Shown: piece by piece, positions 3,251 through 57,889 of the stretch
Position numbering within the stretch: the first letter of the stretch is position 1
How the letters are laid out: every line of letters begins with the position of its first letter
Assembly (NCBI GenBank): GCA_965246885.1
Contig: OZ251992.1
Coordinates: 2,304,001-2,368,000 of the forward strand
DNA: 64,000 bases
Direction: 5' to 3'
Source of the DNA: Abditibacterium sp.
GTDB lineage: Bacteria; Armatimonadota; Abditibacteriia; Abditibacteriales; Abditibacteriaceae
Position numbers and translations under genes: made by a program
Notes under the pieces: generated by a model
The model's input: the letters and a program-made list of their open reading frames with translations, nothing else
What the model was told of the DNA's origin: nothing
The model's database searches: none

Positions 3251-3397
3251 CATGATTACCTCCCCGCACGCCATGAATTCCTCCCCGCACGCCATGAATT
3301 CCTCCCCGCGTGGCGTAAATTCCTCCCCGCGTGGCGCGAGGGACGTCCGCCACTTAATAGCGGACGTCCGTCATCCCATGATTTCCGTCCGCGAACT
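3251..3397. repeat. 21-bp-period tandem array A (about 7 units)
   Basis: CATGAATTCCTCCCCGCACGC-type units from 3251, drifting into GGACGTCC-containing units; overlaps the M32 stop codon. Confidence 0.9.
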
Positions 3398-4895
3398 TCT
3401 CGCGCAGATACGTCAAGTAAGGCGCCAGTTCGAGCGGTCGCCCCGTTGCCGATACCACCAAGTCGCGCGGCAAAACGCCCGCGCCAAAGCGATGAACATG
3501 CGCCGTTAGCCACTCGCGGAGCGGCGCATACTCGCCGCGCCGAAACTGTCCGTCGAGGTCGGGTAACTGCGCGCGCGCGGCCTCGAACAGTTGCGCCGCG
3601 AGGATATTGCCGAGCGTATATCCCTGAAACGCGCCGCCAATTGTCCCCGAAAACCAGTGAACATCCTGCAAGCACCCGCGCGCATCGTCGGGCGGCGTCA
3701 ACCCCAAGTCCGACTGGTAGCGCGCGTTCCACGCTTCGGGCAAGTCGCGCACGGCTAACTTGCCTTCGAGCAGTTCCAACTCTAAGTCGAAGCGGATAAG
3801 GACGTGTAAGTTGTAGGTTAGCTCGTCGGATTCCGTCCGAATCAGGGACTTTTGCACGCGGTTAACCGCCGCGACGAACTCACGTTGCGACGTATCGCGC
3901 AGTCCGGGGAACTGGGCCTGCGCGCGCGGAAACCAGAAGTCCCAAAACGCATCGGAGCGCCCGACGAGGTTTTCCCACAAGCGCGACTGCGATTCGTGAA
4001 CGCCCGACGACGTGCCGTTATCGAGCGGCGTGCGCCCAAAGCGCGGCGCGATGTTTTGTTCATACAAAGCGTGTCCGGCTTCATGGAGCGCCGAGAAAAA
4101 CAGTTCTCCGAACTCGTCCTCGTCGCCGCGCACGGTGATTCGCACGTCGTCCGGCGCGAACTTGGTCATGAACGGGTGCGCGGAAAAGTCCATCCGCCCG
4201 CGCGAAAAGTCGTAGCCAACGGCGCGGATGGCCTCGCACGCAAAGTCGCGTTGCGCGTCGAGCGCGAAATGCCCCCGCAACGGCGCGACCGAGGCGTTCT
4301 CGCGCGCCGTCACTTCGCGCACGAGCGGCACGAGCGCTTCCCGAAGCGGCGCGAAAACGGCGCGAATCGAAGCGACGGACTCGCCCGGATCGCTCCCGTC
4401 AATCAGCGAATCGGCGATGTGCTCATGCGGAAAGAACCCGGCGTATTCGCGCGAATAATCGAGCGTGCGCTCCAATAATGGCGCGACGCGCGCGAAGTCG
4501 GAGTTCCCTTTCGCGTCTTCCCACGCGCTGTAAATCTGGGCGCAGTGCGCCGCAAAGCGCGCCTCGAACTCGGACGGCACGCGCGTGGCGCGCTCGTAAT
4601 CGCGCTTGGTCGTCGCCAACAAACGCACGGGGAAATCATCCCCGACTGCGTTCTGCTCGCCCGCGAATTCGGCGCACCCGTCCAATAATTCCCCCACGCG
4701 CGGCGCGACGAACTTCTCATGCGCGAGTTTGGAAAGCGTGCCCAACATCTGCCCGCGCCCCGCCGAAGCGCCACCCGGCAACAGCGTCGCTTGATCCCAG
4801 TGCGCAAGCGCGCCCGCCCCGCGCAAGTCAGCGACTTCGCCCAACCGCTCCAGTAATTCGCCCCAAGCAGGCGGCCCTTTGGCTTCGGTTTGCAT
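3354..4895 (-). CDS. Carboxypeptidase M32 (Taq-type)
   Basis: HEAGH zinc motif, HESQS, HPF, IRTESDE and GCLQDVHW motifs; start placed at ATG 4895 (MQTEAK). Confidence 0.95.
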   Translation of the reverse strand: MQTEAKGPPAWGELLERLGEVADLRGAGALAHWDQATLLPGGASAGRGQMLGTLSKLAHEKFVAPRVGELLDGCAEFAGEQNAVGDDFPVRLLATTKRDYERATRVPSEFEARFAAHCAQIYSAWEDAKGNSDFARVAPLLERTLDYSREYAGFFPHEHIADSLIDGSDPGESVASIRAVFAPLREALVPLVREVTARENASVAPLRGHFALDAQRDFACEAIRAVGYDFSRGRMDFSAHPFMTKFAPDDVRITVRGDEDEFGELFFSALHEAGHALYEQNIAPRFGRTPLDNGTSSGVHESQSRLWENLVGRSDAFWDFWFPRAQAQFPGLRDTSQREFVAAVNRVQKSLIRTESDELTYNLHVLIRFDLELELLEGKLAVRDLPEAWNARYQSDLGLTPPDDARGCLQDVHWFSGTIGGAFQGYTLGNILAAQLFEAARAQLPDLDGQFRRGEYAPLREWLTAHVHRFGAGVLPRDLVVSATGRPLELAPYLTYLREKFADGNHGMTDVRY

Positions 4896-4911
4896 GAAGA
4901 AGACAGTGTAA

Positions 4912-5142
4912 GACGCCGCCAACTTCCTGATTTCCGCCGCCAACTTCGTCCGTTACGCCGTCAACTTCCTCGTTTATGACAAAACATTGGTCGCGTATGA
5001 CAAAATGTTCCTCGGTTACGCCGTCAACTTCCTCATTTATGACAAAACGTTCCTCGTTTATGACAAATACTTCCTCCGTTACGCCGCCAACTTCCTAATT
5101 TACGCCGTCAACTTCCTGATTTACGACAACTTCGTTCCAGTT
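4912..5142. repeat. 21-bp-period tandem array B (11 units)
   Basis: Two interleaved unit types, TACGCCGTCAACTTCCTCATT and TATGACAAAACGTTCCTCGTT, in exact 21-bp phase. Confidence 0.95.
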
Positions 5143-5179
5143 TATTTTGATTTTTTCTTGGCGCCTGTCCAAACGTTCT

Positions 5180-5391
5180 GTCATTGCGAGTGGATAGAGG
5201 AAAAGTTGCGAACGCACCAAAACGCCGCGCGTTGTCATTCCGAGGGGAGCCTTGGCGATCATTGGCGACCAGAGGAATCTATTGGCAGTCGCCCATTTGT
5301 TACCGAACGAAAGGCGGAACAAGATTCCTCTGGTCGCCAAGGCTCCCCTTGGAATGACAGCTTGCAGCTTTCCACACCCTCTCAGGATGAC
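5180..5391. mobile_element. Nested REP/MITE-like palindromic element
   Basis: Inner arms TGTCATTCCGAGGGGAGC...GAGGAATCT (5233-5280) and AGATTCCTC...GGAATGACA (5322-5359); outer GTCATTGCGAG / CTCAGGATGAC; related copy at 14103-14306. Confidence 0.75.
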
Positions 5392-5503
5392 GAAAGGGGC
5401 AGCTTTTTTGGCGCGTTTGCGACTTCCTGCCCCCCTCAACTCCTCGTTGCGGACGCAGTTGCAATTTCCCCTCAAATTCCAGCCCAAACCGGAAAAACTG
5501 CCA

Positions 5504-5560: not shown

Positions 5561-8500
5561 ATGCGTTTTTCTTCCTTCTTTTGTCGCGTTTTGATGGTGG
5601 CGTTGCTCTTCGGCGCGCACGCGGCACACGCCCAAACCCCGTTCGCCGCGTCGGTGAAGACGCCCCCGACGACTCTGCCACCGCTTGATTTTTCTGGGGC
5701 TACATTCCAAAAACCCGTTACGGTTAAAGTTCCTGTTTCGCTGTCGCCATCGCAAGTGCTGAACATCACCGACTTCAACGTGACGCCCGCGAGTGCAACC
5801 ACTGCTCTGCAAAATTCGATGCAGGTGTATAACGCGGCGGGACAGGTCATCCAAAGCGGAGCCGGGCCGATTAAAGGCGGCGCCGATGCCAATAGCACAC
5901 CCTCTTATGCCACCTTCACTTCTACCACGCCTGCATCGTTGTCAATAAGCACGCGGACGGTAGCGCAAAGGGGTTCCGATAGCATGGTCTCATCGGATCC
6001 AACAAAGGTGGGGCTGATCACAGCCAACGCCTTTTCTCGTTCTGGGACGGTGACTACTCAAGGTACTGGCAATCTAAATCAGTGGGTCGACAACTACTAT
6101 TACTTCGGCGTAATTCGTCTACAAGCAGGAGAGATCTTTACCGTTAAATCGGGAAAAGTATGGGATCCGGGAAACCCTCCATTTATCAACTCATACCGTT
6201 TGTTCCACGTGGAGTTGATTAACACGAAGACGGGCGCCTATGGAGGAGGAACTGGCAACCCCGGCCAACACAACCCTTTAGACGAACGCAGCACTGTAGT
6301 TCCAGCGGATGGCGATTATCAGTTGAGGTTCACAATGACTTCCGGTGGCCCGATAACGTACGCCTATTCCTTCGACTTTGAAACTTCTTTCGCCACTCAA
6401 GCTCCCAATCGCGGAGCGGGTAAGAAAGAGCCAAATAACAAATCAACGGGGATGAATCCTGTATCGGGAGCGACCGAGGGCACATGTTCTGGTTGCGGGC
6501 CGAAAAGTGCTGACCCAGTAGATTTAGCATCTGGACAAGAGAATTACGACCAAAGCCCCGATTTGCCGGTTTACAACCCCAACGGGCCGGATGTGGCGTT
6601 TTCTCGGCATTATTCGACGGAGCGGGCGAAGGCGTTGGGGGCGTCGCCGGGGCTGCCGACCGGGTGGTATCACTCGTATGATGTGCGGTTGGAGTCGAGC
6701 GGCAACGGCGGGAGTTGGGCACCGATGGAGATGGTGTATCCCAATGGGGCGCACGAAACGCTCACGCCGTTGGCGGCTCCCGCCAATGCTGTGTCCGTTT
6801 CGTTCACGGTGCCCAAGGGTTCCAAATATGTGGTGACGGCCTCTCCCGGCCCAACGGCTTACAGTTACGGAACGGCGAGCGTGGTGTGGAGCGACGGCAC
6901 GACGTGGAACTTCCAGCCGCCCGCGCCCGGCTCGAACAAGGCGTTGCTGTCTTCCATCGTGGCGGCAACTTCGACGGCGGCGACGCCGCAGTTTTTGACG
7001 TTCAACTGGGTGGGCGACGACCGCGACGACTACCGATTGGTGGGCGTCAACAACGGGAGCGATTTGAAGCGGTTGCTGTCGCTCCAATATACCGGCAACC
7101 CGGCGGACGGATTTTTGCTGAACGAAATACGCGACTGTTACGGGCGTAGCATCTTTTATTCCAACGGGACACTTGCAGGCACGACAGGCACCGGTGCGAG
7201 CGCCATCACGACGCTCACGGGCGTTTCGATGTTCGCGCCGACGGGCGGCACGGCGAACCAGCACTTCGCTTTTGGCTACACCAACTTCAATGGCGCGCCG
7301 CTTTTGTCGGGCATTACGGTGCCGCATCCCAACGACCCCACTCTCAACACAACGGCGACGGCGACCATCAACTACGACTCGACAACCGGGCGCGTCCTCA
7401 GCGAAGTGGACGGCAACGGCAACACGACGAGCTTTACCTATGGCGCGACCTCGACTACTGTCAAGAAGTTTGGGACGAGCGGCGTTCAGGAAACGCAGTA
7501 CACCGCGCTCTTCGACGCGCAGGGCCGCTCGGTCGGCACAACGGACGCGGCGGGGAACAGCACGGCCATCGCGTATGGCGACACCAACAACCCCGACAAG
7601 CCCACTATTATCCGCGACGCGGCGGGGCGCGTAACAAGCATTACCTACGAGCCGAACGGTTACGGCTTGGTCAAGACCGTTAAAACACCGCGCGGCGTGA
7701 CGACGAACTACCTGTACGATTACAGCGTGTGGGGCTTTGGTTTGTTGGCGCAGACGTACCAAAGCACCGTGATTAACGGAGCGACGGTCAACCGCGCGCC
7801 GACGCAGTTCAGCTACAAACCGGGCTTCGAGCGCGCGGGGTTGGTGTCGCAGATTAGCAGCCCGCACCCCAATTTGGGCATTAGCAACTGGACGGGCGCT
7901 TCGATGGTGTTCACGACGATGCAATACAACGACTATGGCGACGTCACGATGGTAGTGGCGCCCGGTCATGGCTCGTATGCCAACTTGACTACGACGATTA
8001 GCTACACCTCCGACGGGACTTACACCCAAAGCGCCAAACGCGGGCAAGTGGTGAGCGCCACTGATCCTTCAAACCGCACGACGGCGGCGCGTTACGATGC
8101 GCGCGGCAACCGGATTTGGTCGCGCGACGGCTTTGGCGTGGTGACGCAGACAACCTTCGACCTCGCTGACAACGCGATGGGCGTGCAGTTCATGAACACC
8201 GGGCAAAGCGGGACGTATGCGTCGCAGGTGATGCTTCGCTATAACTATTTGGGTGGGATGGTGAAGACGACGGATGTGTTCGATGAGAGCGGCTCCAGCA
8301 CGCCCATCCGCAGCGTGAGCACGACCTTTGACGGTGAAGGGCGGGCGGTTTCGGTGAGTGGCTCGACGGAGCCGTTTTCGGTGAGTTTGAACTCTTTCGA
8401 TGCGCCCAAGAGTTCGACCGATGGCAACGGCAACACCACGACGTATTCGTATGATGCGCGCGGCTTGCCCACGATGGTGGTGAAACCTAACGGCAACACG

Positions 8501-10615
8501 GGGACGGGGTATGACGTGACGCGCTTCACGAGCTACGCTCCCGATGGTCAATTGTTGTCGCAGACCGATGGGCGCGGCATCACCACTAACTTCACGTATG
8601 GCGACCCGGACGGGGCGGTGTCGAGCATCAGCCTGCCGGATGAGACGGTCTCTTTCGGGCGGGATGCGTGGGGACGGTTGTCCTATCGCTTCGATTCGAG
8701 CGGCAACCAGAGCTACGCGTATACCGAAACCGATGCGCCCTCCATCGTCAACGACGCTTACAAGCGCGCCGATGGCAGCTATATCCCCGGCCCCGGCTTG
8801 TTGTTGTATCACCAGTATTACGACGACGGCACTCCGGCCACCTTGTTCGGCAACCCCGGCACGGCAACGGCGCCCATCAACTTGTTGCGTAGTTATGACC
8901 CCAGTGGCAATCTGACCGGCATCTATGACTATGCGCAAAGCCTGAGCAGCAGTTGGAGCTACGACGCCAACAACCGCTTGCAAAGCGCGAGCGCGGCCAA
9001 CGGCTGGGCGCGCTCCTACGCTTACAACGCCCTCAACCAACTGGTGGGGCTGACCGGAAGCAAGAGCGGGCAACCGAGCCTGAACTTCGGGCATCCCAGC
9101 GACCCCAACTTGCAGTTGAAATACGACGGCGCGGGGAACATGACGCGCGAGACGGCCAACTTCGGCACGGCGGCGGCGAGCGGCCCCGGCTACGCAACGG
9201 GCACGACGAGCTACGGCTACGATAGCCAAGACCGTTTGACGGGCGAAAGCAGCAACCGCTTCGGCGGGCAGAGCCGCACCTACTCCCTCGACGCCGCCTT
9301 CAACCGCACGAACCTCAACGCGAGCAACGGCACGAACGCGGGCCAAACCCTGAGCAGCTTTACGCGCACGCAGGGCGCCAACGGGCAGAACCAAACCCTT
9401 GGCACCTCGACCACGAACGTGCAAAGCGGCGCGCAGACCAACACCTCGTATAGCTACGACGGCGAAGGCAACCGCGCCACCTATGCCGATGGCTCGCAGG
9501 TGCTGACCTACACCTATGACTCCCAACAACGCCTGACGGCTGTGACCAAATACACGGGTGGCGCGGGGCAAGTCATCCTCAAGTGCGGCTACCGCTGCGA
9601 CGGCCTGCGGGCGTGGAAGGAGACCGGCGCGGGCGTGCGGACTTACTTCCTGTATGACGGCGACCAACTCATCGGCGAGTTCGACCAAAACGGCGTCGTC
9701 AAAGCCGTCCAAACGTGGGGCGCGGAAGGATTGGCCTCTCGCCAAACCACCCCCGGCATCGCGTCGGGCAACCGCTTCTACTCGTGGGATCCGCGCGGCA
9801 ACATCGCCGCCACTACCGACCTTGCCGGCAACGTCGTCAACACCCCATCTTCCGACGGCTTCTCTTCGACGGGCGGCACCGCGAGTGAACCCACCGCCAC
9901 CTTCGGCGGGCAAGTCGGCGGCTACCGCGACGCCGAAACTGGACTCATCCTCTTCGGGCAGCGATACTATGACCCGGCGCTGGGACAGTGGCTGACGCGC
10001 GACCCCATTGGGGAAGACGGCGGGATTAACCTGTATTCGTATGTTGGAGGCAATCCGGTTAATGATATTGATCCTTGGGGACTGTACGGTGCTAAGGATG
10101 CTGCTGGAGATCTGGCAAAGGCAGTCGTACAAATTGCGGGCCAGTGGGGTGTAGAGCGTGGTTGGCAGATTCCTCTTGGCGTTGCTGGTGCCACACCTGT
10201 CGGTGTGTTTGCTGGAGTGCTGTTAGATGCAAAACCAGCAGGTGGCGCTCAGGACACAATGACTGGGCATAATGCGGCACTTCAACAAGTCATCTTAAGA
10301 AACACTCGGACGTTAAGAGGATGGGCTAAAAGTAAAGGGTGGATGTGTAAAGGCGGTGGCGGGCCGGAGCAATGGGGCGTTTATCGGCCAGATGGTTCAT
10401 TCTCTTGGAGACTGAAAATCAAGCAAGATCCATCGTCAAGCTCAGGCCTTTCAAACAGGGGAAGGGCGGGACAGGCTGGTAGTTACTCTCCAAGATTTGA
10501 TGCGAGACTGAATGAAGGAACTCCCACGACCCCTAACGTTTTCGTAAACCCCTTTACAGGCGCTACTGGCGGCTCAATACTCTCGCACCAACCTTTAGAC
10601 AGGGTATACCCTTAA
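5561..10615 (+). CDS. Rhs/YD-repeat polymorphic toxin with N-terminal signal peptide
   Basis: Signal peptide ending AHA-Q; DPVDLASG/DUF6531-like region; YD repeats; core terminus RYYDPALGQWLTRDPIG...YVGGNPVNDIDPWGL; divergent C-terminal tip 10085-10615. Confidence 0.95.
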   Translation: MRFSSFFCRVLMVALLFGAHAAHAQTPFAASVKTPPTTLPPLDFSGATFQKPVTVKVPVSLSPSQVLNITDFNVTPASATTALQNSMQVYNAAGQVIQSGAGPIKGGADANSTPSYATFTSTTPASLSISTRTVAQRGSDSMVSSDPTKVGLITANAFSRSGTVTTQGTGNLNQWVDNYYYFGVIRLQAGEIFTVKSGKVWDPGNPPFINSYRLFHVELINTKTGAYGGGTGNPGQHNPLDERSTVVPADGDYQLRFTMTSGGPITYAYSFDFETSFATQAPNRGAGKKEPNNKSTGMNPVSGATEGTCSGCGPKSADPVDLASGQENYDQSPDLPVYNPNGPDVAFSRHYSTERAKALGASPGLPTGWYHSYDVRLESSGNGGSWAPMEMVYPNGAHETLTPLAAPANAVSVSFTVPKGSKYVVTASPGPTAYSYGTASVVWSDGTTWNFQPPAPGSNKALLSSIVAATSTAATPQFLTFNWVGDDRDDYRLVGVNNGSDLKRLLSLQYTGNPADGFLLNEIRDCYGRSIFYSNGTLAGTTGTGASAITTLTGVSMFAPTGGTANQHFAFGYTNFNGAPLLSGITVPHPNDPTLNTTATATINYDSTTGRVLSEVDGNGNTTSFTYGATSTTVKKFGTSGVQETQYTALFDAQGRSVGTTDAAGNSTAIAYGDTNNPDKPTIIRDAAGRVTSITYEPNGYGLVKTVKTPRGVTTNYLYDYSVWGFGLLAQTYQSTVINGATVNRAPTQFSYKPGFERAGLVSQISSPHPNLGISNWTGASMVFTTMQYNDYGDVTMVVAPGHGSYANLTTTISYTSDGTYTQSAKRGQVVSATDPSNRTTAARYDARGNRIWSRDGFGVVTQTTFDLADNAMGVQFMNTGQSGTYASQVMLRYNYLGGMVKTTDVFDESGSSTPIRSVSTTFDGEGRAVSVSGSTEPFSVSLNSFDAPKSSTDGNGNTTTYSYDARGLPTMVVKPNGNTGTGYDVTRFTSYAPDGQLLSQTDGRGITTNFTYGDPDGAVSSISLPDETVSFGRDAWGRLSYRFDSSGNQSYAYTETDAPSIVNDAYKRADGSYIPGPGLLLYHQYYDDGTPATLFGNPGTATAPINLLRSYDPSGNLTGIYDYAQSLSSSWSYDANNRLQSASAANGWARSYAYNALNQLVGLTGSKSGQPSLNFGHPSDPNLQLKYDGAGNMTRETANFGTAAASGPGYATGTTSYGYDSQDRLTGESSNRFGGQSRTYSLDAAFNRTNLNASNGTNAGQTLSSFTRTQGANGQNQTLGTSTTNVQSGAQTNTSYSYDGEGNRATYADGSQVLTYTYDSQQRLTAVTKYTGGAGQVILKCGYRCDGLRAWKETGAGVRTYFLYDGDQLIGEFDQNGVVKAVQTWGAEGLASRQTTPGIASGNRFYSWDPRGNIAATTDLAGNVVNTPSSDGFSSTGGTASEPTATFGGQVGGYRDAETGLILFGQRYYDPALGQWLTRDPIGEDGGINLYSYVGGNPVNDIDPWGLYGAKDAAGDLAKAVVQIAGQWGVERGWQIPLGVAGATPVGVFAGVLLDAKPAGGAQDTMTGHNAALQQVILRNTRTLRGWAKSKGWMCKGGGGPEQWGVYRPDGSFSWRLKIKQDPSSSSGLSNRGRAGQAGSYSPRFDARLNEGTPTTPNVFVNPFTGATGGSILSHQPLDRVYP
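9226..10084 (+). repeat. Rhs core segment duplicated at 10950-11808
   Basis: Gap-free alignment at constant offset 1724; nearly identical over 9226-9623. Confidence 0.95.
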
Positions 10616-10639
10616 AAGCGGGAAGACGGAATCTACACC

Positions 10640-10939
10640 ATGAAAGACGCAGCCGTTTCACATCTGGTAAAAATCCTTGAAGACAAATCTATTTCAATAG
10701 CAGACAGGGACGACGCAGCGATAGATTTGGGAGCCTTCGACGACGATGCCGCGTTAGCTGCACTTGTCGCGGTGGGTCAAGATGCGGATGAAGATGAAAT
10801 GATTCTCTCTTCATGCGGCACTGCAATCTCTGACATTTGGCAGCGTCGAGGCGAATATAGCCTTGAAGTTCTCGATTCCCTCAATCCTGCCGCTCGGATT
10901 GAAGCTTTAGTGATGACTGGCACTCTTCGGCAATGTTGA
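10640..10939 (+). CDS. Putative immunity protein (acidic, HEAT-like) for the main Rhs toxin
   Basis: 99-aa AT-richer ORF directly after the toxin tip; DRDDAAIDLG helical motif. Confidence 0.75.
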   Translation: MKDAAVSHLVKILEDKSISIADRDDAAIDLGAFDDDAALAALVAVGQDADEDEMILSSCGTAISDIWQRRGEYSLEVLDSLNPAARIEALVMTGTLRQC

Positions 10940-12231
10940 CCTACGACGCCCAAGACCGCTTGACGGGCGAAAGCAGCAACCGCTTCGGCGGGCAGAGCCG
11001 CACCTACTCCCTCGACGCCGCCTTCAACCGCACGAACCTCAACGCGAGCAACGGCACGAACGCGGGCCAAACCCTGAGCAGCTTTACGCGCACGCAGGGC
11101 GCCAACGGGCAGAACCAAACCCTTGGCACCTCGACCACGAACGTGCAAAGCGGCGCGCAGACCAACACCTCGTATAGCTACGACGGCGAAGGCAACCGCG
11201 CCACCTATGCCGATGGCTCGCAGGTGCTGACCTACACCTATGACTCCCAACAACGCCTGACGGCTGTGACCAAATACACGGGCGGCGCGGGGCAAGTCAT
11301 CCTCAAGTGCGGCTACCGCTGCGACGGCCTGCGGGCGTGGAAGGAGAACGCGCAAGGCGTGCGCACCTACTTCCTGTATGACGGCAGCAACCTCATCGGC
11401 GAGTTCGACCAAAACGGCGTCGTCAAAGCCGTCCAAACGTGGGGCGCGGAAGGATTGGCCTCTCGCCAAACCACCCCCGGCATCGCGTCGGGCAACCGCT
11501 TCTACTCGTGGGATCCGCGTGGCAACATCGCCGCCACCACCGACCTGTCCGGAAACGTCCTCAACACCCCCGCCAGCGATGGCTTCTCCTCGACCGGCGG
11601 CACCGCCCTCGAACCCACCGCCACCTTCGGCGGACAGGTCGGCGGGTATCGGGACGCCGAAACGGGCTTGGTGCTGTTCGGCCAGCGATACTACGACCCC
11701 GGTCTGGGACAGTGGATCACCCGCGACCCCATCGGGGAAGAAGGCGGAGTCAATTTGTATTCGTATGTCGGCGGAAATCCGGTTGGGCGTGTTGATCCCA
11801 GTGGGTTGGACTGGCAATTAGAAGGAGCAGGAGCCGCAGGAGGAACGGTAGTCATTGGAAGCGCGGGAGGTAGCGCTACTGTTGGCGCTTCGATACTCGG
11901 CAGTCCCGTTGCATTGGGTGCGGGAGCGGCAATCGGAGGATTCGCAGTTGGAACGCTCATCAATCGCCGATTCCACATCTCCGACAGGATCGCCGACAGG
12001 CTTGTCCCTGATCAGATAGGGCTTGGGCCGATTTTCTGCCCATCTAAGGGAGGAAAGCAAAAGGGGGATACTGACGTCACACGGCGTGTGAGACAGGAAT
12101 TGCAAGGGGGTAAAAAAACTGTTCAAGATATAATAGCGGAGTTGCGTAAAGAAGGAACCTTTACCAAGCAGGAGATAGATTTTGCGGAGAAGATTCTTGG
12201 CCGTCGCAACAAGAAGAAGAGGGGTAAATAG
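10933..12231 (+). CDS. Orphan Rhs core plus alternative toxin tip (tentatively Ntox34-like)
   Basis: Duplicated core ending NPVGRVDPSGL; new tip with Gly/Ala hydrophobic stretch and basic KGGKQ...GRRNKKKR end; no signal peptide. Confidence 0.85.
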   Translation: MLTYDAQDRLTGESSNRFGGQSRTYSLDAAFNRTNLNASNGTNAGQTLSSFTRTQGANGQNQTLGTSTTNVQSGAQTNTSYSYDGEGNRATYADGSQVLTYTYDSQQRLTAVTKYTGGAGQVILKCGYRCDGLRAWKENAQGVRTYFLYDGSNLIGEFDQNGVVKAVQTWGAEGLASRQTTPGIASGNRFYSWDPRGNIAATTDLSGNVLNTPASDGFSSTGGTALEPTATFGGQVGGYRDAETGLVLFGQRYYDPGLGQWITRDPIGEEGGVNLYSYVGGNPVGRVDPSGLDWQLEGAGAAGGTVVIGSAGGSATVGASILGSPVALGAGAAIGGFAVGTLINRRFHISDRIADRLVPDQIGLGPIFCPSKGGKQKGDTDVTRRVRQELQGGKKTVQDIIAELRKEGTFTKQEIDFAEKILGRRNKKKRGK

Positions 12232-12237
12232 CGAAAA

Positions 12238-12609
12238 ATGTGGTATTCAGCTCACGCAGTAATGCTCATTCGACTGACAGATTGTGCTCAGCATGAATTT
12301 CCTGTATGGGAAAATATATTTCTCATAGAAGCCTCTGATTCAGACGAGGCCACAGTAAAAGCTCAAGAACGTGCGTTAGAAGATGAAGTCGAGGGTGGTG
12401 GTCTAAGTTGGGAAGGACACAAAGCCAAGTGTATATTCTTAGGACTGCGAAAGTTAATGCAGTGCTTTAGCGATGAGCGACAGCCAGGGGATGGCACTGA
12501 GCTTACACATAATCAACTCCTCTTTTCTACTCAGAGTTCTTTGGATGAATTTGTTCTTGGACGTGAGTGTCAAGTCACGTTTCAGGATGAGAATCCTGAT
12601 GATGACTAA
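12238..12609 (+). CDS. Putative immunity protein, DUF4288-like
   Basis: MWYSAH...WENIFLIEASDSDEA motif; AT-richer; starts 6 bp after the orphan toxin. Confidence 0.75.
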   Translation: MWYSAHAVMLIRLTDCAQHEFPVWENIFLIEASDSDEATVKAQERALEDEVEGGGLSWEGHKAKCIFLGLRKLMQCFSDERQPGDGTELTHNQLLFSTQSSLDEFVLGRECQVTFQDENPDDD

Positions 12610-12631
12610 AAGCGTGGTTTGTGGCCTCAGC

Positions 12632-13036
12632 ATGACTCAGAACGGTGTCACCACCAACGTCGCTTACAGCTATGACGGCGAGGGCAACCGCGCGACCCAA
12701 ACCGTCGGCAACACCGCCAACAACGACAACTCCGTCACCAGTTACGCCTACGACAGCCAGCAACGCCTCACGCTTGTCAGCCAGAGCGTCAACGGCGCGG
12801 CGGCGGCGACGGTGATGAAGTGTGGCTACCGGAGCGACGGGCTACGCGCGTGGAAGGAGAACGCTCAGGGCGTGCGCACCTACTTCTTGTATGACGGCTC
12901 CAACCTCATCGGCGAGTTCGACCAAAACGGCAACGCGAAAGCGATTCAGACGTGGGGTGCCGAGGGGTTGGCCTCGCGCCAAACCACCCCCGGCACCGCG
13001 TCGGGCAACCGCTTCTACTCGTGGGATCCGCGCGGG
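12632..13036 (+). pseudogene. Truncated Rhs core fragment without toxin tip
   Basis: YSYDGEGNRAT...RFYSWDPRG is homologous to the other two cores; homology stops abruptly at about 13036. Confidence 0.85.
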
Positions 13037-13081
13037 CATCGCCCGAAGGCTCCACCGTCACGCCGTTTGTTCTGTGACTAT

Positions 13082-13107
13082 AGATCCTTCGCTGGCTCAG
13101 GATGACG
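13082..13107. repeat. Half REP-like element
   Basis: AGATCCTTCGCTGGCTCAGGATGACG; CTCAGGATGACGAA also occurs at 5381-5394. Confidence 0.65.
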
Positions 13108-13179
13108 AAGCGGCGTTTTCTTGGCGAAATTGATGCTCCACAGAAGTCTCTCGTCTTTGGAGAAGACGGGGAGCATCAC

Positions 13180-14106
13180 ATGTCAAACTTTGATGACGCT
13201 TTAGGCGTGAACGGCCACTTGAATGGCCACGCGAACGGCAATGGAACGGCAATGCTCGAACGGCCCCTGAATGGTGGCGGCGAGGCGGGCGTTCTTTCGA
13301 TGGGCAATGGGGCGCTGCTTCCTATAAGCGCGATGAATGGGGCGTATGCGCGGGCTGTTGACCCGGTTCCGCCTGTGCCGCCGATACCTCCCGCTCCGGC
13401 TAAGCCCGCGCGCAACCCGTTCAACAAGCAGTTGCAGCGCGAGTTGGCGGTCACGACGCAAGTGTGTTTGGCGGCGCTCAAGCCCGAATACGCGGGGGCT
13501 TTAGCGGGTTGGGGCATCACGGACAACAAGGTGCACGACCTGTTGAACGCCGTTAATGCGGCTCATGGCGTGAGTGCGGAAGCGCAAACTTCGACCAACG
13601 CGCGCGTTCATGCCACACGCGAAGAGCGGAAGGCGCGGGCCATCTTGCTCGGTTCGTTTCGCACCATCCAAAGCGCGGCGCGCATGGTGTTCGGCGTCTC
13701 GAAACCCGCCCACTTGCGCGATTATGGCGTCGGCGTTCTCCTGCCCACGCGCGCGTCGGTCGTGCAGGTGTATGAAGGCATCCTCAAGCAGTTGCAAACC
13801 GACACGTTGCCCGGCATCATCCCGGAGTTCATCACGCAAATGACGGTGCGCTACAACGACTGGAAGGCTGTTATCGCCAATCAAGGTCACTCGCAATCCG
13901 GCGCCACGACCCAGCGCGCCCACCGCAACGCGACCATAGACGACCTCGTGAAGCGCCGCCGCGAAATCCAAAGTGCCGCCAACGGCGTGTGGCCGCCCTC
14001 GCCCTCCAATCACGGCACGCGCCGCGAGTTCGCGCTCTCGCCCACCCGCCACTTCGCCACGCCCACGCCGAAAACGAAAAAGCGCGCCCCGAAGCCGATG
14101 ATTTAG
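13180..14106 (+). CDS. Hypothetical protein (NG-rich N-terminus, Pro linker, helical domain)
   Basis: GGGGAG RBS before ATG 13180; genome-typical codon usage. Confidence 0.75.
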   Translation: MSNFDDALGVNGHLNGHANGNGTAMLERPLNGGGEAGVLSMGNGALLPISAMNGAYARAVDPVPPVPPIPPAPAKPARNPFNKQLQRELAVTTQVCLAALKPEYAGALAGWGITDNKVHDLLNAVNAAHGVSAEAQTSTNARVHATREERKARAILLGSFRTIQSAARMVFGVSKPAHLRDYGVGVLLPTRASVVQVYEGILKQLQTDTLPGIIPEFITQMTVRYNDWKAVIANQGHSQSGATTQRAHRNATIDDLVKRRREIQSAANGVWPPSPSNHGTRREFALSPTRHFATPTPKTKKRAPKPMI

Positions 14107-23874: not shown

Positions 23875-24714
23875 TCACGGCTTGTCTGGCCGAGGGTCTG
23901 GCTTCCACTCTCCTTTGCGAATCTTCTCCGCGTAGATATGATTGACGCGAATCAGACCAGCCATGTCTTTTCGATCCTCCGCCGCATCGGGCGTGTTAGG
24001 CCGTAGTTGCAGATATCTTTGTATCGCGGCGGTGTCCTTGTAAATAGCACTCAAGTCATCGCCAGAAGTCCATTGTCCTGAGTAGGCTTGGGACAAGACA
24101 CGATATGCGCGATAATCATTGGGATGCTCTTTGGCGAATCGCAGCGCATAAACCAAACCGCGTTTGCGCGAGGCGCGCGTTGAATGATCCCCTGCCAAAA
24201 TACGTGCGTAGAAAACTTTGACCGGATAATCGTCTGGTTTACGCTGTAGCAGCCGCTCGGCCAGTCCCAAGAAGCGAACTGACTTCTCCTCACGCACCTC
24301 GATAAGGAAGCGCAAGTGCATCGTTTCGTAGTTGGGCGGTAGACCCACTTTGTGCAAGCGTTTGAGCAGTGGATACGACAAAAACCGCTGCTCCAGAATA
24401 GTCGCCGTCTCCTTCTGCGCCTCGTTGCTGGCGTAGGCCCAACGGTAGAGCGCCACGCGGTCAAGCGGCTTTCTCTCATACGCTTGTTGCAGTTGCCGGG
24501 ACAACGCGGCCAAGGCGTTGGAGTTTTTGGCTGCTGCGACTTTAGCCTCCATCTCTTTGCGCGCTTTGGTGAAGGGCGCTTCGCTGGTATTCCACTTCTT
24601 CTTAGCCCAGTCGTGGTAGGAGGCTTTTAACTCGTCGGGGATGCCGGGAGCGATTTCTTGCCCGTGTGCTGTGCCGAGAGCGACAAGCAGGAAGAATAAA
24701 GATGTATGCTTCAT
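23875..24714 (-). CDS. Secreted helical (TPR-like) hypothetical protein
   Basis: Signal peptide MKHTSLFFLLVALGTAHG; TPR-like segments (AIQRYLQLRPNTPDA); 4-bp overlap with the upstream gene. Confidence 0.75.
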   Translation of the reverse strand: MKHTSLFFLLVALGTAHGQEIAPGIPDELKASYHDWAKKKWNTSEAPFTKARKEMEAKVAAAKNSNALAALSRQLQQAYERKPLDRVALYRWAYASNEAQKETATILEQRFLSYPLLKRLHKVGLPPNYETMHLRFLIEVREEKSVRFLGLAERLLQRKPDDYPVKVFYARILAGDHSTRASRKRGLVYALRFAKEHPNDYRAYRVLSQAYSGQWTSGDDLSAIYKDTAAIQRYLQLRPNTPDAAEDRKDMAGLIRVNHIYAEKIRKGEWKPDPRPDKP

Positions 24715-26783
24715 TGTTTGTCCTTTCCGGGGGTTCGCAAATCTTCGTAAAGCCCGATAGCTGCCTCTTCGGTCGGTTGAGCTACTGCCTTTTTATCGAG
24801 AGCAACAAAACCCGAAGGGTTGAATTGGTCGCCTTTATATAAGGTGATCTCGTATTCATCGTAGAGGTAAAGGTGCTTGAGACGGCACTCCTCAAATAGC
24901 GAATCAGGCGGCACTAAAACCCCTACTGCTGGGTATTTTTGTTGAACCTTCTTGGCGATGTCGAACATACCGGAGATGTTCTGTGTAGCCGAGTTGACGC
25001 CTTGGTTTGGGTGCCAGTTATCATCCGCAAGTTTGGCCGCCGCCGCTAAAGTTTTGAACCACGGGGTCTTGACAAACTTGGCAGCAGTGTCCAGTGACTT
25101 AGCGCCAAATTGAGCAGCTGCGTCTACGTCTCCCAACAAAACCGACCGCTTATCGCACGTTGCAGGGGTGCCATCGGCTTTGATGTTCTGGCTGGCTCCC
25201 ACACTCATTGTGTCTGGATTGAAGTCGTAGAGGACATACGAGATTTTCTTGTCTCCGTAAGGCTCGTAGTTCTCGTAGTCCTCATGCCAGTTGACCGTGT
25301 AGGTGTTAACCAATGGAGGCACGGTAGGTAGAGGCGGCATCCTTGTGCCAGCGAGCTTCTCTCCGACTTCGACTTTGAAAGTGGATTTCTTGATCCTCAG
25401 TCCGTCATCTTTGCCCAGATATATCCCACTGACGTCCACCGTTTGAGGAAGCTGTCTGATGTTATCCCACCAACTGTTGCTCTCGTCATTCGCATTGACG
25501 CTGACATTGAGATCTACCTTGCTCTGATCTTTTTGAAGCTCGTCCGACGTTGCAAATTGTGGAGTTCCACCTTGCAAGCTCCATTTGTATTGGGGAGACA
25601 AAAAGCCTTCAGCATTGGCTGTATATCTCCCTCTGCCATAGCTGTCTGTCTTTGTGTAATCGAGTGGAGATAAAAGATCCCCAAGCGATGGTTGTGCGTC
25701 TCGATACAGTTGGAGATATGTGCTATGCACATCTATCGAGCCATCAGAATTCCGTTGGCATTGAATGGCGTAAGTGCCAGTCTTTTCATCAGCCCACAGC
25801 ACGGGGCGTCCGGCTCCTTTGTCCATTAACCGGTTGCCCGCCGCGTCCGTTTGGAAGCTACCATCAGGGTTCTTCAAGTAGCAGTAGTCCGGCAGAGGGT
25901 TCTGTGGGAAAGCTGGCCCCACCGCCGAGAACTTATAGTAGCTGGGCTCGATGTCGGAGGTAATCCACAGTTGGTGCGGGTCGATGTCGTAGTGAGGGAT
26001 GACGCACACCGAAGCGTATGTCTTGTCTCCCTGCAGACCCCCATCATAATCAGGGTCAGGATACCTGCCCATCGTGACGCGGCAAGTGGCGCTCACGGGC
26101 GGCATGGGATACGTCACATACAACGAACCGTCGGTGGCGGTGACGCCCTTGGATGTGGGCGTGGCCCCTTGGGTGGAAAGGGTCAAGTAGCTGATGGGGG
26201 TCGCGGCATAGCTGAAGAACTGCGTATACGGGGAGGGGCTGGTCAGCTTCTGCGCGTGAGTCGAGTCCGAGTAGCTCTTGCCGCCCGGGGCCGCCACGCG
26301 AGTGGTCAAGGTGACGCTTCCGGGCGTGCCAGTCAGTGCGGATCCGTTGTAGCCCTTTGGATCGCCCAAGTCCAGCCGGGCGCCCGTGCCTATGGCCTCT
26401 TGCCAGAACCAAACGCCCACAAACGGCGGAATCTTCTCGCCTTTGGCCGAGGGCGTCCAGCGCAGCACGAGGGTGTAGCTCCCGGCGGTGCTGGCCGTTT
26501 GCGTTTGGCCCATATCGAGCGGCCCGCTCCCCGAGCCGTGCGCGTCGGAACTGTCACTATCGCCTTCGGTCGAGTTCTGCCAGACATAGACATGACCCTG
26601 TGTCTCGCCTTGGCCCGCGCTACGAGCGCTTTGCCCGTTGTGATCCAGCGAGATGGCCCAGCCGCCCGCGTGGGCCAAGGGCGCGTTCATCAACAAACTA
26701 CCTGACGCGACAGACGCCGCAAGCGCCCAACGGCCCAACAACAAGGGCGAGCGCGGCGCGCTCTTGTGGTTGCGATTTTTCAT
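24711..26783 (-). CDS. Secreted hypothetical protein (about 690 aa)
   Basis: Long ORF; signal peptide ending PLAHA; start placed at ATG 26783. Confidence 0.8.
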   Translation of the reverse strand: MKNRNHKSAPRSPLLLGRWALAASVASGSLLMNAPLAHAGGWAISLDHNGQSARSAGQGETQGHVYVWQNSTEGDSDSSDAHGSGSGPLDMGQTQTASTAGSYTLVLRWTPSAKGEKIPPFVGVWFWQEAIGTGARLDLGDPKGYNGSALTGTPGSVTLTTRVAAPGGKSYSDSTHAQKLTSPSPYTQFFSYAATPISYLTLSTQGATPTSKGVTATDGSLYVTYPMPPVSATCRVTMGRYPDPDYDGGLQGDKTYASVCVIPHYDIDPHQLWITSDIEPSYYKFSAVGPAFPQNPLPDYCYLKNPDGSFQTDAAGNRLMDKGAGRPVLWADEKTGTYAIQCQRNSDGSIDVHSTYLQLYRDAQPSLGDLLSPLDYTKTDSYGRGRYTANAEGFLSPQYKWSLQGGTPQFATSDELQKDQSKVDLNVSVNANDESNSWWDNIRQLPQTVDVSGIYLGKDDGLRIKKSTFKVEVGEKLAGTRMPPLPTVPPLVNTYTVNWHEDYENYEPYGDKKISYVLYDFNPDTMSVGASQNIKADGTPATCDKRSVLLGDVDAAAQFGAKSLDTAAKFVKTPWFKTLAAAAKLADDNWHPNQGVNSATQNISGMFDIAKKVQQKYPAVGVLVPPDSLFEECRLKHLYLYDEYEITLYKGDQFNPSGFVALDKKAVAQPTEEAAIGLYEDLRTPGKDKQ

Positions 26784-26870
26784 GGGATGCGCGCCGCGTT
26801 TTTCGGCGTCCCTTTGATCTACCAAATCAATGTTAATGAGGTTTTAAGTTGGCCCCTTATTTTTCTCGTC

Positions 26871-27206: not shown

Positions 27207-27231
27207 CCCATGTCGGCGGGCGGGTTGGTGG

Positions 27232-33392: not shown

Positions 33393-33549
33393 TGTCTGCC
33401 TTCCAATGACCGCCGTCTGTCACCGATTCCCGCGCGGCTGGCGGCAATTCCCGCGCGTGTGGCGGCGATTCTCACACGTGTGGCGGCGATTCCCGCGCGT
33501 CTGTCATTCGCCGACAGACGGCAGTGAAAAGGTCGCCGACGTCTGTCTT
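33393..33549. repeat. 21-bp-period array D (about 8 units)
   Basis: CGTCTGTCACCGATTCCCGCG / CGTGTGGCGGCGATTCCCGCG-type units; unit starts at 33414, 33435, 33456, 33477, 33498, 33519, 33540. Confidence 0.9.
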
Positions 33550-33699
33550 TGGGAGCGCGGCGGGGGCTTGTGTTATCCTTTCCTTTATTACAGAACGTGC
33601 GCGCGCACGGAGAGATTGAGGGGAAACCCTTGAAGGGGCGCACTTCTTCTTGCGGCTCGCCATCGCAGACGACATTCCAGCCAACGAGCCGCACTCGTT

Positions 33700-44666: not shown

Positions 44667-44714
44667 GAACGGAAGTCCCACCCGCATAGGCGGACGACGG
44701 GCGCGCGTAATTCC

Positions 44715-44840
44715 CTCGTCGGCGCGACCCGGCGACTCGTCGGCGCGACCCGGCGACTCGTCGGCGCGACCCGGCGACTCGTCGGCGCGACCCGGCGACT
44801 CGTCGGCGCGACCCGGCGGACAATCCGCGCGACCCGGTGC
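44715..44840. repeat. 21-bp tandem array E (4 perfect + 2 degenerate units)
   Basis: CTCGTCGGCGCGACCCGGCGA repeated from 44715. Confidence 0.97.
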
Positions 44841-45033
44841 ATGGGCCGCTGCCGCAAATGAACGAGCGCGGCGCAGAAAGTTACCGGGGCGAAACACACG
44901 CGCAACTTCCGGGGATGATAATGTTTTGTGTTGAGCGCACGCTGGCTCAAGCGCTGGTGTTGAACGGTGGTTTTCATGGTCGTTTCTTCGGTTTGATTCT
45001 CCTGTTCCCGCGCCCAAAGCGCGAGAAGCGCGG

Positions 45034-55477: not shown

Positions 55478-55541
55478 AGGGCGCCAGTATGCCCACCAGT
55501 TGGGACAGGCGCGCAGTGGATAAAGGCAGGGACTCGCACTT

Positions 55542-57011
55542 ATGGCTCAAAACATGGGAATGTCGCAGGGGATGGAGCAGTCGCTCAACCCCAAAATGAT
55601 AGCGTTTTACGAATTGCTCCAACAGCCCAACGTCGAACTGGAACAAGCGATAGAAACCGAACTGCAAGACAACCCGGCGCTCGAAGTGTCCGCCGAGCGC
55701 GTCTGCCCCGCGTGCGGCTCGACCATGCTGTCCGCGCAGTGCCGCGAGTGCGGCTACAAGCTCACCAAGGAAGACGAGGACGCTTTCGAGTCTGGGGAAC
55801 TGGGCAAAGAGAAAATCCTCGACCTCGCCGTTGAAGCGGCCCCGATGGAAAAGGCAACTTACAACGGCGACGAGGACGGCTTCGACGTGATGGCCCGGCT
55901 CACCGCGACAGAAACCCTCGCCGAGCACCTGCGCTGGCTGTGGAGGATGAGTTGCAACAACCCCGGCACCCTCGAAATCGGCGAGCAGTTGATCGGCTGC
56001 ATCAACGACGACGGGTATTTGGACACCGACCTCGAAACCCTGTCCGAGGGGTTGGGCATCCCGCTCGAAACCCTGGAAGAAGTCTTAGCCGACATCCAGA
56101 ATCTCGAACCCGCAGGGGTGGGCGCGCGCACCTTGCGGGAGTGCTTGCGCTTGCAATTGGTGCACCGCGAAAAGGGCAAGGACGCCGACATCGCGCAACT
56201 GGCGCTCCGGCTTATTGACGACCACTGGCAGCCCTTGGCCCGTCACTCCTACGAAGACATCGCGCGCAAGCTCAAGACCAGCATTGACCGCGTGCAAGAG
56301 GGAGCCGACTTCGTGCGCAACGAACTGACGCCCTATCCGGGCAGGCAATTCCGCCCCAGTTGGCACACCAACTCCCCGCAAGCCGCCGGACGGGTGCGCC
56401 CCGATGTCGAGATCAAGCGCCAAGAGGACGGCAAAGGCTACCTCGTCGAGGTCGTCGAGTCCCGCTCGCTCGGACTGCGCGTCAACGCGGTTTATCGCCA
56501 ATTGTGGGACGCCATGCGCAAAGACCCAGTTGGCTACTCCAGCAAAGACCGCGAACACGTGCAGATCTATTTGACCCGCGCCCGCGAGTTCATTGACAAC
56601 CTCAACCAACGACGCAAGACGCTCAAACTCATCATCGAAGCCGTCGCCCTCGAACAGGGCGCCTATTTAGAGGCCGGGTTACACTCGCTCAAGCCGCTAA
56701 CGCGGTTAAGCGTGGCCCACAAATTGGGGCTGCACGAATCCACCGTTGGCCGCGCGGTATCGGGCAAATACGCCATGCTCCCCAACGGCGAGGTTATCGG
56801 CTGCGAACTATTCTTCGACGCCAGTTTGTCCGTCAAAGAAGTCATCAAAGATCTGCTCGCCGATGAGAACCCGCGCAAGCCGTTCTCGGATGAACAAATC
56901 TCGGCGGAATTGTCGAAGAAGGGCATAGAGATCGCGCGCCGCACCGTCACCAAATACCGCGAAGCCCTCAAAATCCCCCCCGCCGCGCAGCGCCGCCGCT
57001 ACGACAAATAA
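55542..57011 (+). CDS. rpoN: RNA polymerase sigma-54 factor
   Basis: DNPALE, EPAGVGARTLRECL, LHESTVGRA, SDEQI and RpoN box ARRTVTKYRE. Confidence 0.97.
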   Translation: MAQNMGMSQGMEQSLNPKMIAFYELLQQPNVELEQAIETELQDNPALEVSAERVCPACGSTMLSAQCRECGYKLTKEDEDAFESGELGKEKILDLAVEAAPMEKATYNGDEDGFDVMARLTATETLAEHLRWLWRMSCNNPGTLEIGEQLIGCINDDGYLDTDLETLSEGLGIPLETLEEVLADIQNLEPAGVGARTLRECLRLQLVHREKGKDADIAQLALRLIDDHWQPLARHSYEDIARKLKTSIDRVQEGADFVRNELTPYPGRQFRPSWHTNSPQAAGRVRPDVEIKRQEDGKGYLVEVVESRSLGLRVNAVYRQLWDAMRKDPVGYSSKDREHVQIYLTRAREFIDNLNQRRKTLKLIIEAVALEQGAYLEAGLHSLKPLTRLSVAHKLGLHESTVGRAVSGKYAMLPNGEVIGCELFFDASLSVKEVIKDLLADENPRKPFSDEQISAELSKKGIEIARRTVTKYREALKIPPAAQRRRYDK

Positions 57012-57087
57012 GGTGGGAGTGCCAAAGAAGCCCGCGTTGGCCCCGGTCTCGCTCTCCCCTTCTCACTTCTCTGGAACGGGGCGAACT

Positions 57088-57801
57088 ATGGCGGACGACA
57101 CTCACCTTCTCGATGTGGACGTGCAGACACTCATGCGCGGCTTGGTTCACGAACTGCGCAATCCTCTGTCAGCCATCCTCACGGCGTCGTCGCTTCTGCC
57201 AGGTGCGGCGGGATTGGACGAAGAAACCGCCATGCTGTTGGATGTGGTCAGCAAAGAAGCGCGGCGCATGAACCGAATTTTGACGGAGTTTTCCATCTTC
57301 GCCAAGCCGCCTAAAGCGCACCCGGAAGCGCTGGACTTAGCGGGCTTGGCCCGCGAGTTTGTTTCTAAATCCCAAGGCGAGGGCGAAGCGATGGTTCTGC
57401 ACGATGAGTTGCCCCCGACGTTACTCGCGTTCGCCGACCCTCAGGGGGTAGCACTTGCTTTGAAGCACATCCTCGAAAACGCGAGTGAAGCGGTGCCCGA
57501 AGGGGGTCATGTGCGCTTGGCGGGCGGGCACGCCCAAGCTGGGGTGTGGCTTTCAATTACCGACTCCGGGCCGGGGCTGAGCGAACAAGCCCTTGAGCAA
57601 GCCTTTCAGCCGTTTTTCTCCAACAAGCCATCCGCGACGGGGTTGGGGCTTTCTATTGCCCGTGCCATGCTCCGCGCGTCGAACGGCGACTGCCGTATCG
57701 CCAACGCGGGGGACACAACGAGCAACGAAGGGCCACGTGGGGCGGTCGTCATTCTCGAACTTCCTTCCGCGCTTCACCAAGAGACGTCTGCTGCCGCTTA
57801 A
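57088..57801 (+). CDS. Histidine kinase without sensor domain (HisKA + HATPase)
   Basis: HELRNPL, ENASEA, DSGPG, FQPFFS and TGLGLSI motifs. Confidence 0.88.
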   Translation: MADDTHLLDVDVQTLMRGLVHELRNPLSAILTASSLLPGAAGLDEETAMLLDVVSKEARRMNRILTEFSIFAKPPKAHPEALDLAGLAREFVSKSQGEGEAMVLHDELPPTLLAFADPQGVALALKHILENASEAVPEGGHVRLAGGHAQAGVWLSITDSGPGLSEQALEQAFQPFFSNKPSATGLGLSIARAMLRASNGDCRIANAGDTTSNEGPRGAVVILELPSALHQETSAAA

Positions 57802-57889
57802 GGGACGTCTGGCACCGCCCCACAGACGTCTGTCACCGCCCCACAGACGTCTGTCACTGCTCGACGCACGTCTGTCGTTGTTCCACAGA
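57783..57889. repeat. 21-bp-period array F (5 units)
   Basis: GACGTC at 57783, 57804, 57825 and 57846; CACGTC at 57867. Confidence 0.93.

Follow-up and report, generated by a model that had tools for sequence, protein, structure and literature searches.

A Self-Avoiding Lattice of 21-bp Tandem Arrays on the Chromosome of an Abditibacterium Species

Period-21 Arrays in the Window and across the Genome

The chromosome of Abditibacterium sp. (assembly GCA_965246885.1, hereafter G000) carries a species-specific lattice of tandem arrays whose 21-bp unit spans two helical turns; the arrays are spread over the whole chromosome and avoid one another. Six of them (A to F) lie in the 64,000-nucleotide stretch of contig OZ251992.1 analysed in this study, hereafter the window (G000:C1:2304001-2368000). 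The genome amounts to 3.56 Mb in two contigs, with a GC content of 62.5% and a completeness of 92.7%; its 3082 genes were called with our own dicodon model, and gene boundaries are therefore approximate. A first-pass annotation of the window had reported six arrays with an exact 21-bp period, and these proved real where it had placed them: identity at lag 21 ranged from 0.48 to 0.92 (A 0.67, B 0.66, C 0.48, D 0.60, E 0.92, F 0.77) compared with 0.15–0.32 at lags 20 and 22, and none of 3000 shuffles reached the observed value for any of the six arrays, even with the best of 16 lags. Its expectation of a genome-wide excess of this period was also borne out, as 236 lag-21 segments were detected, 178 of them mostly intergenic, whereas no tested lag outside the multiples of 21 gave more than 20 segments or more than 5 intergenic ones. 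Among 481 merged loci of Tandem Repeats Finder, 306 had period 21 or a multiple of it, with 38 for period 18, 7 for 20, 6 for 22, and 17 for 24. Intergenic autocorrelation peaked at lags 21 (0.301), 42 (0.294), and 63 (0.288) over a background of about 0.26; higher-order repeats of 42 or 63 bp are common, and perfect local runs occur.

The further claim that most of the arrays differ in sequence held for one part of them, namely B, C1, and the first part of A, which belong to minor families; D, E, F, C2, and part of A share a hidden dyad consensus and form the main family. A circular profile over 304 arrays gave 4.9 per array versus 2.0 for column-shuffled arrays, with 175 arrays at 4.5 or above. 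The consensus is a degenerate 16-bp dyad, a 5-6-5 palindrome of the form YSVCR-N6-YGBSR, plus 5 nt, and its symmetry is strong at one of the 21 possible axes (r = 0.81) and at most 0.39 at the others. Left and right half-sites use the same small vocabulary, freely mixed along the arrays. Arms of the same unit show no more Watson–Crick pairing (0.431) than arms taken from random units (0.436), and no covariation, which fits independent half-sites and not hairpins. Column conservation also shows a three-base rhythm. A second-order cyclic model detected 330 segments (43 kb, 1.2% of the genome), compared with 4 in 1.2 Mb of reversed sequence. Almost all units are distinct (1547 of 1661), and only 7 of these 1547 recur in another array; sharing of at least 32 bp was seen for a single pair among 299 array segments, and array ends fall on all 21 columns. 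A typical array comprises about eight units (interquartile range 133–188 bp) and starts a median of 3 bp from the 3′ end of a gene, versus 88 bp from a 5′ end. No gap orientation class stands out among the array sites, array orientation shows no bias by gene strand or replichore, and no gene family is enriched among the 444 genes flanking main arrays.

Even Spacing and Mutual Avoidance

Whereas the first-pass annotation had recognized the shared period, the even spacing over the chromosome lay outside its view. On the larger contig, 255 merged main arrays are separated by a mean gap of 13.6 kb with a coefficient of variation (CV) of 0.45, compared with 0.97 ± 0.06 for intergenic sites drawn at random (minimum over 5000 draws, 0.78), and two gaps are shorter than 4 kb where 61 were expected. 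Relative to the null, the density of pairs is 0.03 below 4 kb, 0.38 at 4–6 kb, 0.8–0.9 at 6–10 kb, and about 1 beyond 10 kb, and no long-range order was found beyond this short-range exclusion. The spacing is described by a soft exclusion of about 6–7 kb; simulated hard exclusion gave a CV of 0.52 at 6 kb and 0.35 at 8 kb, and a 4-kb dead zone gave 0.69. Within 10 kb of an array lies 97% of the chromosome, versus 83% in the null. The two chromosome halves agree (CV 0.39 and 0.50), and the evenness is robust to four score thresholds, to a null with the same merging rule, and to a uniform-position null; it is also present in a model-free lag-21 set (0.62 versus 0.97). Control features behaved like their own nulls, with CVs of 1.02 for hairpins, 0.94 for long gaps, and 0.85 for terminator-like sites, while convergent gaps (0.84) are slightly even, far less so than the arrays. 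The largest gap between main arrays contains a CRISPR island, and the second contig of G000 carries five arrays.

Avoidance extends beyond sequence families. Subtypes of the main family are randomly intermixed and keep apart from each other to an equal degree, and the 37 strong intergenic minor loci, from a set cleared of three false matches in the CRISPR zone and of ordinary coding repeats, lie at a median of 6.5 kb from main arrays versus 4.0 kb expected, a distance reached in none of 20,000 draws. Since minor loci and subtypes also keep away from main arrays, avoidance does not need sequence identity. Main and minor arrays together number 292, with a mean gap of 11.9 kb and a CV of 0.46.

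Distribution in Other Genomes

Of 31 genomes in the class and 401 in the phylum, G000 alone matched patterns of two consecutive units, and the main motif was found in none of 400 other Armatimonadota genomes. In 1.26 Mb of the relative G003, four lag-21 segments were detected, compared with about 84 expected at the density of G000; 382 kb sampled from nine congeners held six such segments and no second lattice. These comparisons suggest that the lattice arose within one species lineage. Viral contigs gave no match to the main motif, and metagenome contigs gave seven, three of them with short, weakly scoring 21-bp arrays. Three GC-rich metagenome contigs (L090, positions 180-255; L093, 779-821; L095, 683-763) carry short 21-bp arrays in which the central palindromic core recurs. 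As a separate observation, G000 is half the size of its relatives G001, G003, and G011 (3.6 versus 7.2–8.0 Mb), and its GC content is about 7 points higher; their SucA proteins are 87–88% identical.

Phase Slips, Arrays inside Genes, and Orthologous Sites

The absence of phase slips noted in the first pass is uncontradicted in the six window arrays, but 43 of 225 main arrays across the genome do slip. Where loci are broken into pieces of different phase, the shift was one base short in 42 of 42 cases, and a Viterbi pass with equal penalties over the 225 arrays found 43 slips one base short and 1 one base long. The slips lie mostly at the border between arm and spacer and in longer arrays (median 197 versus 165 bp), and their direction would fit a helical target slightly under 10.5 bp per turn.

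Approximately 90% of the arrays are not gene-internal. The 29 gene-internal segments are divided over the frame classes as 13, 9, and 7 and encode linkers rich in Pro, Ser, Thr, and Ala, whereas stop density in the other arrays is 0.037, 0.013, and 0.024 per codon in the three frame classes, none of which is stop-free. The proposal that the arrays are relics of heptad-peptide genes is not supported on these grounds: all three frame classes are used, stops occur in each, and the peptides are of the linker type. Among the host proteins are RecG, UvrA, FtsK, CheA, DnaX, and PrmA, as well as a GMC oxidoreductase and an enzyme of the urea-carboxylase type. Compared with five relatives, PrmA has 35 extra residues, a gain of 105 bp (5 × 21 bp); RecG has about 25 extra residues in a variable linker, and in UvrA a variable loop has given way to the array.

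Duplication of DNA by a process working in 21-nt steps, likewise proposed in the first pass, is partly supported by the gains of 210 bp at array E and 105 bp in PrmA over empty orthologous sites and by the 42- and 63-bp repeats. However, at 13 of 15 collinear sites in the 1.26 Mb of G003 the length difference is not a multiple of 21, and exact multiples at empty sites are limited to E and PrmA plus one trivial zero. Such a process would moreover produce neither a shared consensus nor even spacing. Arrays as rearrangement scars were also considered and rejected, as they are not enriched at synteny breaks (8/23 versus 30/124 control gaps).

Arrays Associated with Helical+FN3 Genes

Three gene families encoding helical+FN3 proteins, with four copies in G000, usually have an array of period 21 or 41/42 bp upstream, forming what are referred to here as cassettes. 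Type 1, a large family with 508 representatives, is present in G000 as a 214-aa gene with a minor array 78 bp upstream. An array lies within 1.1 kb upstream at 16 of 18 type-1 loci, that of G000 included, with period 21 in eight and 41/42 in eight; in other Armatimonadota, arrays were found within 300 bp of 7 of 17 gene starts. Type 2 (231 aa in G000), which was grouped with the helical+FN3 families by resemblance and has no profile match, shows upstream arrays at 8 of 10 mapped and 2 of 12 unmapped loci. Its array in G000 has four gene-less relatives (three by clustering, one by eye), located 5.6–11.2 kb from main arrays. Type 3 combines a doubled helical part with an FN3-like beta domain and has upstream arrays at 8 of 9 loci outside G000; locus L286 has no array in its 378 bp upstream. 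G000 holds two type-3 copies, both basic, one with an array about 640 bp upstream and the other without, and the type-3 query matched none of 12 congeners. A basic, array-less helical+FN3 gene of 379 aa (G000:C1:1664364) is, by correlation, a candidate array reader. Small genes downstream of arrays revealed no new cassette type among those listed of 187. Genome G020 holds about 24 helical+FN3-type cassettes of three families (L105-L149, L155-L165, L280-L288), nearly each with its own 21-, 41-, or 42-bp array.

The predicted type-1 structure, with a predicted local distance difference test score (pLDDT) of 94, consists of a long helical hairpin and an FN3 domain. The protein is predicted to form an antiparallel helical homodimer with a score of 0.71, versus a best of 0.00 for three controls; among solved proteins, 20 of 30 pairs and 1 of 23 single chains attained the mark set for this score. 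Contact agreement among the dimer runs was at least 84% and pLDDT at least 87. By a rough estimate from helix length, the FN3 domains of the modelled dimer would be about 70–90 Å apart, near the 71 Å of 21 bp. No catalytic domain was found in the helical+FN3 proteins.

Possible Roles of the Arrays

Among the explanations raised in the first pass, helically phased binding platforms are the best supported, by the dyad consensus, the independent half-sites, the one-base-short slips, and the related 41/42-bp cassettes, with the binding protein itself still putative. Tentatively, and at somewhat under an even chance, we take the arrays to be docking platforms on double-stranded DNA, phased with the helix, for a putative protein. 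This reading is favoured because the two-turn period, the dyad, the narrow size range, the avoidance across families, and the persistence in core genes are expected from a cooperative reader combined with a benefit of one array per domain. A two-fold symmetric putative protein would bind once per two helical turns (21 bp), and approximately eight dimers bound in a row on one face of the helix could form a platform for loading or bridging. The arrays would thereby split the chromosome into domains some 12 kb long; an array arising close to an existing one would be useless or harmful and would disappear, and those arising in long gaps would persist. A sequence-defined mark every 12–14 kb makes the question of domain barriers directly testable, with predicted boundaries that can be read from the sequence, and the fact that the lattice writes into RecG, UvrA, and FtsK within one species lineage suggests that the force maintaining it is strong and recent.

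Several observations weigh against docking platforms. Short-range exclusion alone explains the spacing, and insertion immunity would yield the same pattern equally well. Some minor arrays, B included, lie less than 2 kb from a main array, and the model that detects main arrays was trained on these same arrays. Most phase slips fall in one subtype (33 of its 70 arrays versus 9 of 185 in the others), 16 of 42 slip junctions share 12-mers and hence are not all independent, and the bacterial bias toward deletions may add to their asymmetry. An internal 10/11-bp sub-repeat is weak (r = 0.22). G000 encodes one ParB (no extra copy was found), ScpA, HU, and MutS; as ParB, ScpA, and HU are all kept, no lost function is being replaced. 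With regard to the proteins, the FN3 domain of type 1 lacks a basic character, with a median net charge of 0, and in fold searches the matches to the type-1 model were limited to generic FN3 domains, its helical part being barely tested by these searches. The main consensus was fitted neither by any of 50 lag-21 arrays of other genomes nor by the three cassette arrays of G000, the best foreign or cassette array reaching 0.14 log-odds per base compared with a main-array median of 0.40. Finally, the lattice is present in one genome only, and the sampled cassette-bearing genomes show just scattered extra arrays.

The lattice may descend from an array with its helical+FN3 gene, the arrays having escaped from the gene and spread. 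In a possible but rather doubtful extension of the docking platforms, a widespread mobile cassette was domesticated into a sequence-encoded scaffold: about 290 platforms of roughly eight two-turn units each, placed at intervals of 12 kb, would let rod-shaped FN3 dimers assemble and set the limits of topological domains. If true, this would represent a hard-wired, mappable counterpart of nucleoid domain barriers together with a new class of DNA-binding proteins; the lattice also opens a way into the cytoplasmic helical+FN3 proteins, a large and uncharacterised family accompanied by phased arrays.

The strongest rival, which we consider unlikely, is a selfish dispersed element with target immunity, whose copying machinery is excluded near existing arrays and whose copies diverge by slippage or conversion at no benefit to the host. 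The exclusion profile of the arrays resembles Mu cis-immunity, random placement with an exclusion of 6–8 kb brackets the observed CV, the family is limited to one species, arrays sit just behind stop codons and in tolerant linkers, and cassette arrays have gene-less relatives. However, the arrays have no defined ends, near-identical copies were not found (7 of 1547 distinct units recur elsewhere), five Y1-transposase matches are not flanked by main arrays, the helical+FN3 proteins have no catalytic domain, and avoidance crosses sequence families. Should the spacing reflect immunity and not function, it would point to a way of spreading with neither transposase nor ends, itself also new.

Neutral minisatellites, growing by 21-nt slippage and gene conversion while recombination deletes or fuses close pairs, appear improbable. 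Perfect local runs, the higher-order repeats of 42 and 63 bp, and the gains of 210 and 105 bp at two clean sites are consistent with such a process, as are the much smaller size of G000 compared with its close relatives and the position of A at a 4–8 kb deletion junction. On the other hand, arrays are not enriched at synteny breaks and offer almost no long identity for recombination, a 4-kb dead zone alone gives a CV of 0.69 and not 0.45, MutS is present, and the single period, the dyad symmetry, and the narrow size range are left unexplained.

Still more improbable is a self-DNA mark kept by molecular drive, in which a machine for uptake, packaging, or defence favours fragments of about 10–15 kb that carry one array. 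Near-complete coverage within 10 kb, the presence of the CRISPR island in the largest gap, and a very strong avoidance of many 6-bp palindromes, a sign of heavy restriction pressure, would suit this explanation, and even spacing has been noted for uptake sequences by Karlin et al., as cited in the available text of PMC1939737. Uptake sequences are, however, described there as single short motifs, 35–65% of them in open reading frames (ORFs) (PMC1939737), unlike the phased arrays of about eight units, and no Phage_capsid match, the one family searched, was found in the 92.7% complete genome. Hairpins at mRNA ends like those of repetitive extragenic palindromic (REP) sequences and bacterial interspersed mosaic elements (BIMEs), heptad-peptide relics, and an assembly artefact are already largely refuted and very improbable: the position behind stop codons, the palindromic unit, and the three-base rhythm speak for them, but the arms lack covariation, folding z-scores are −1.2 and −2.2 with no strand preference by gene or replichore, all frame classes are used and none is stop-free, run contigs support C and D exactly, in-gene arrays are placed as in-frame linkers, and none of the three would yield even spacing.

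Relation to Known Systems

Partition systems provide one point of comparison. In parC-ParR, sopC, and single-protein partition, arrays are read cooperatively by a protein encoded next door, and the cassettes, in which helically phased tandem sites immediately precede a small gene and a coiled-coil dimer is predicted, resemble such centromeres and iterons. This arrangement holds for the cassette arrays, while the main arrays show no enriched neighbour family; the roughly 290 gene-less arrays over the whole chromosome, and a helical+FN3 protein for which binding is putative, set the lattice apart. Sites of the parS/ParB and Noc/SlmA type are dispersed palindromes, and a 16-bp dyad distributed over the chromosome recalls them. 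The arrays are nonetheless tandem and degenerate instead of single exact sites, and G000 has five canonical parS sites at 477–482 kb, near its single parB gene and apart from the arrays. They differ from CRISPR in having head-to-tail units without spacers, and Rfam and tRNA scans of the window gave no match. From DNA uptake sequences they differ in anatomy, being tandem and mostly intergenic.

REP sequences and BIMEs are similar in that hundreds of species-specific palindromic repeats lie behind stop codons, some in tandem, and a role in topological domains has been proposed for them (PMC3733652, PMC6907758). The described REP families comprise the GTAG and CGTC superfamilies and the REPtrons of REP-associated tyrosine transposases (RAYTs) (PMC3733652). 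In contrast, the 21-bp arrays lack arm covariation, consist of nearly all distinct units, keep a fixed helical period, and avoid one another on a kilobase scale; they have no unpaired terminal GTAG or CGTC tag, CGTC being located in the dyad centre and GTAG being absent from the consensus. A link to RAYTs was tried and rejected, as in the three of five Y1_Tnp matches whose flanks were inspected these contain long hairpins of other kinds, with the nearest 21-bp arrays at least 1 kb away, beside other genes. BIMEs are candidate domain barriers, and the identity of such barriers in bacteria is presented as unsettled in the available text of PMC6907758. Even spacing under selection is reported for yeast origins (PMC3834809).

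Borg repeats are likewise scattered genome-wide, both intergenic and in frame, where they form low-complexity or disordered segments, and are absent in kin (PMC9879509). Their units are reported as perfect, A-rich, of varied length, and mutually unrelated (PMC9879509), unlike the degenerate, GC-rich arrays of one period and a shared consensus; the words "spacing" and "distributed" are absent from the main text of that paper (PMC9879509). Neighbour exclusion over several kilobases is shared with Mu target immunity, the cis form of which is strongest over about 5 kb and decays over 5–25 kb (PMC7350765). The arrays differ from Mu-type transposition in having no transposase, ends, or identical copies. 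Dyad repeats that can be read in frame inside proteins are also known as the Rickettsia palindromic elements. Palindromic amphipathic repeat coding elements (PARCELs) share this property (PMC2996958); they are described as coding repeats of 25 residues (PMC2996958), whereas the 21-bp arrays are mostly outside genes and, where inside, occur in all frame classes. A literature search that covered neither subscription journals nor supplements found no account of such a lattice or cassette, and we regard the lattice as a new category of system.

Arrays and Neighbouring Features of the Window

The arrays of the window, none of which is assigned a strand, were described as intergenic in the first pass, but A reaches into the last codons of an M32 peptidase gene, and F overlaps a histidine-kinase ORF at its end. 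Array A (3233..3397) is composite, joining four minor-family units (about 10 members genome-wide) to main-type units, and is located where relatives have 4–8 kb more DNA. On the minus strand at 3251-3334, every A-family unit contains a Shine–Dalgarno-like GGGGAGG followed, after 5 nt, by ATG; about 10 such arrays occur in the genome. Array B (4912..5145), upstream of the M32 gene, has 11 units of a separate minor family with four members genome-wide and, at 1.6 kb from A, is an exception to the spacing rule. Array C, reported as a single array, resolved into two parts: C1 (26871..27059), with nine degenerate minor-family units upstream of a low-GC unknown gene, and C2 (27102..27227), with main-type units closest to those of E, of which the main-family model detects 27111-27225. 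Array D (33393..33551), of the main family, separates a 129-aa unknown gene from the promoter region of sucA and is absent upstream of sucA in G001, G003, and G011. Array E (44667..44876; clear units at 44678-44838), also of the main family, represents 210 bp (10 × 21) gained right after the lytB stop compared with G001 and G003, in a spacer that is otherwise conserved. Array F (57764..57953), a main-family array with a central palindromic core, lies between the histidine-kinase ORF and the convergent nusB. Contigs from run X1 cross C and D and show 0 differences, but X1 may be the source sample and hence not independent. Folding of D and F is only modestly better than that of shuffles (z −1.2 and −2.2).

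Other palindromic words and repeats were observed in this genome. Thirteen 6-bp palindromes, such as CCATGG, CCGCGG, GGGCCC, and CTCGAG, occur at 0.01–0.09 of their Markov expectation, an avoidance largely common to the family in samples of nine relatives; the commonest central hexamer of the arrays is one of the less avoided words. A long imperfect hairpin at 5232-5360 represents a distinct REP-like family; G009 and G011 contain dozens of relatives, and G000 holds several further hairpin families of 17–47 loci each. Directly downstream of C1, positions 23875-26825 contain two low-GC ORFs (279 and about 660–700 aa) with no Pfam or NCBIfam match. The 129-aa gene on the minus strand at 32910-33299, 93 bp downstream of D, likewise has no Pfam or NCBIfam match, and relatives carry other genes at this place. 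Within a 24-kb gap between main arrays lies an RHS-repeat locus (5561-14106), in which a 1684-aa core gene is followed by shorter RHS fragments, probably a polymorphic-toxin cassette.

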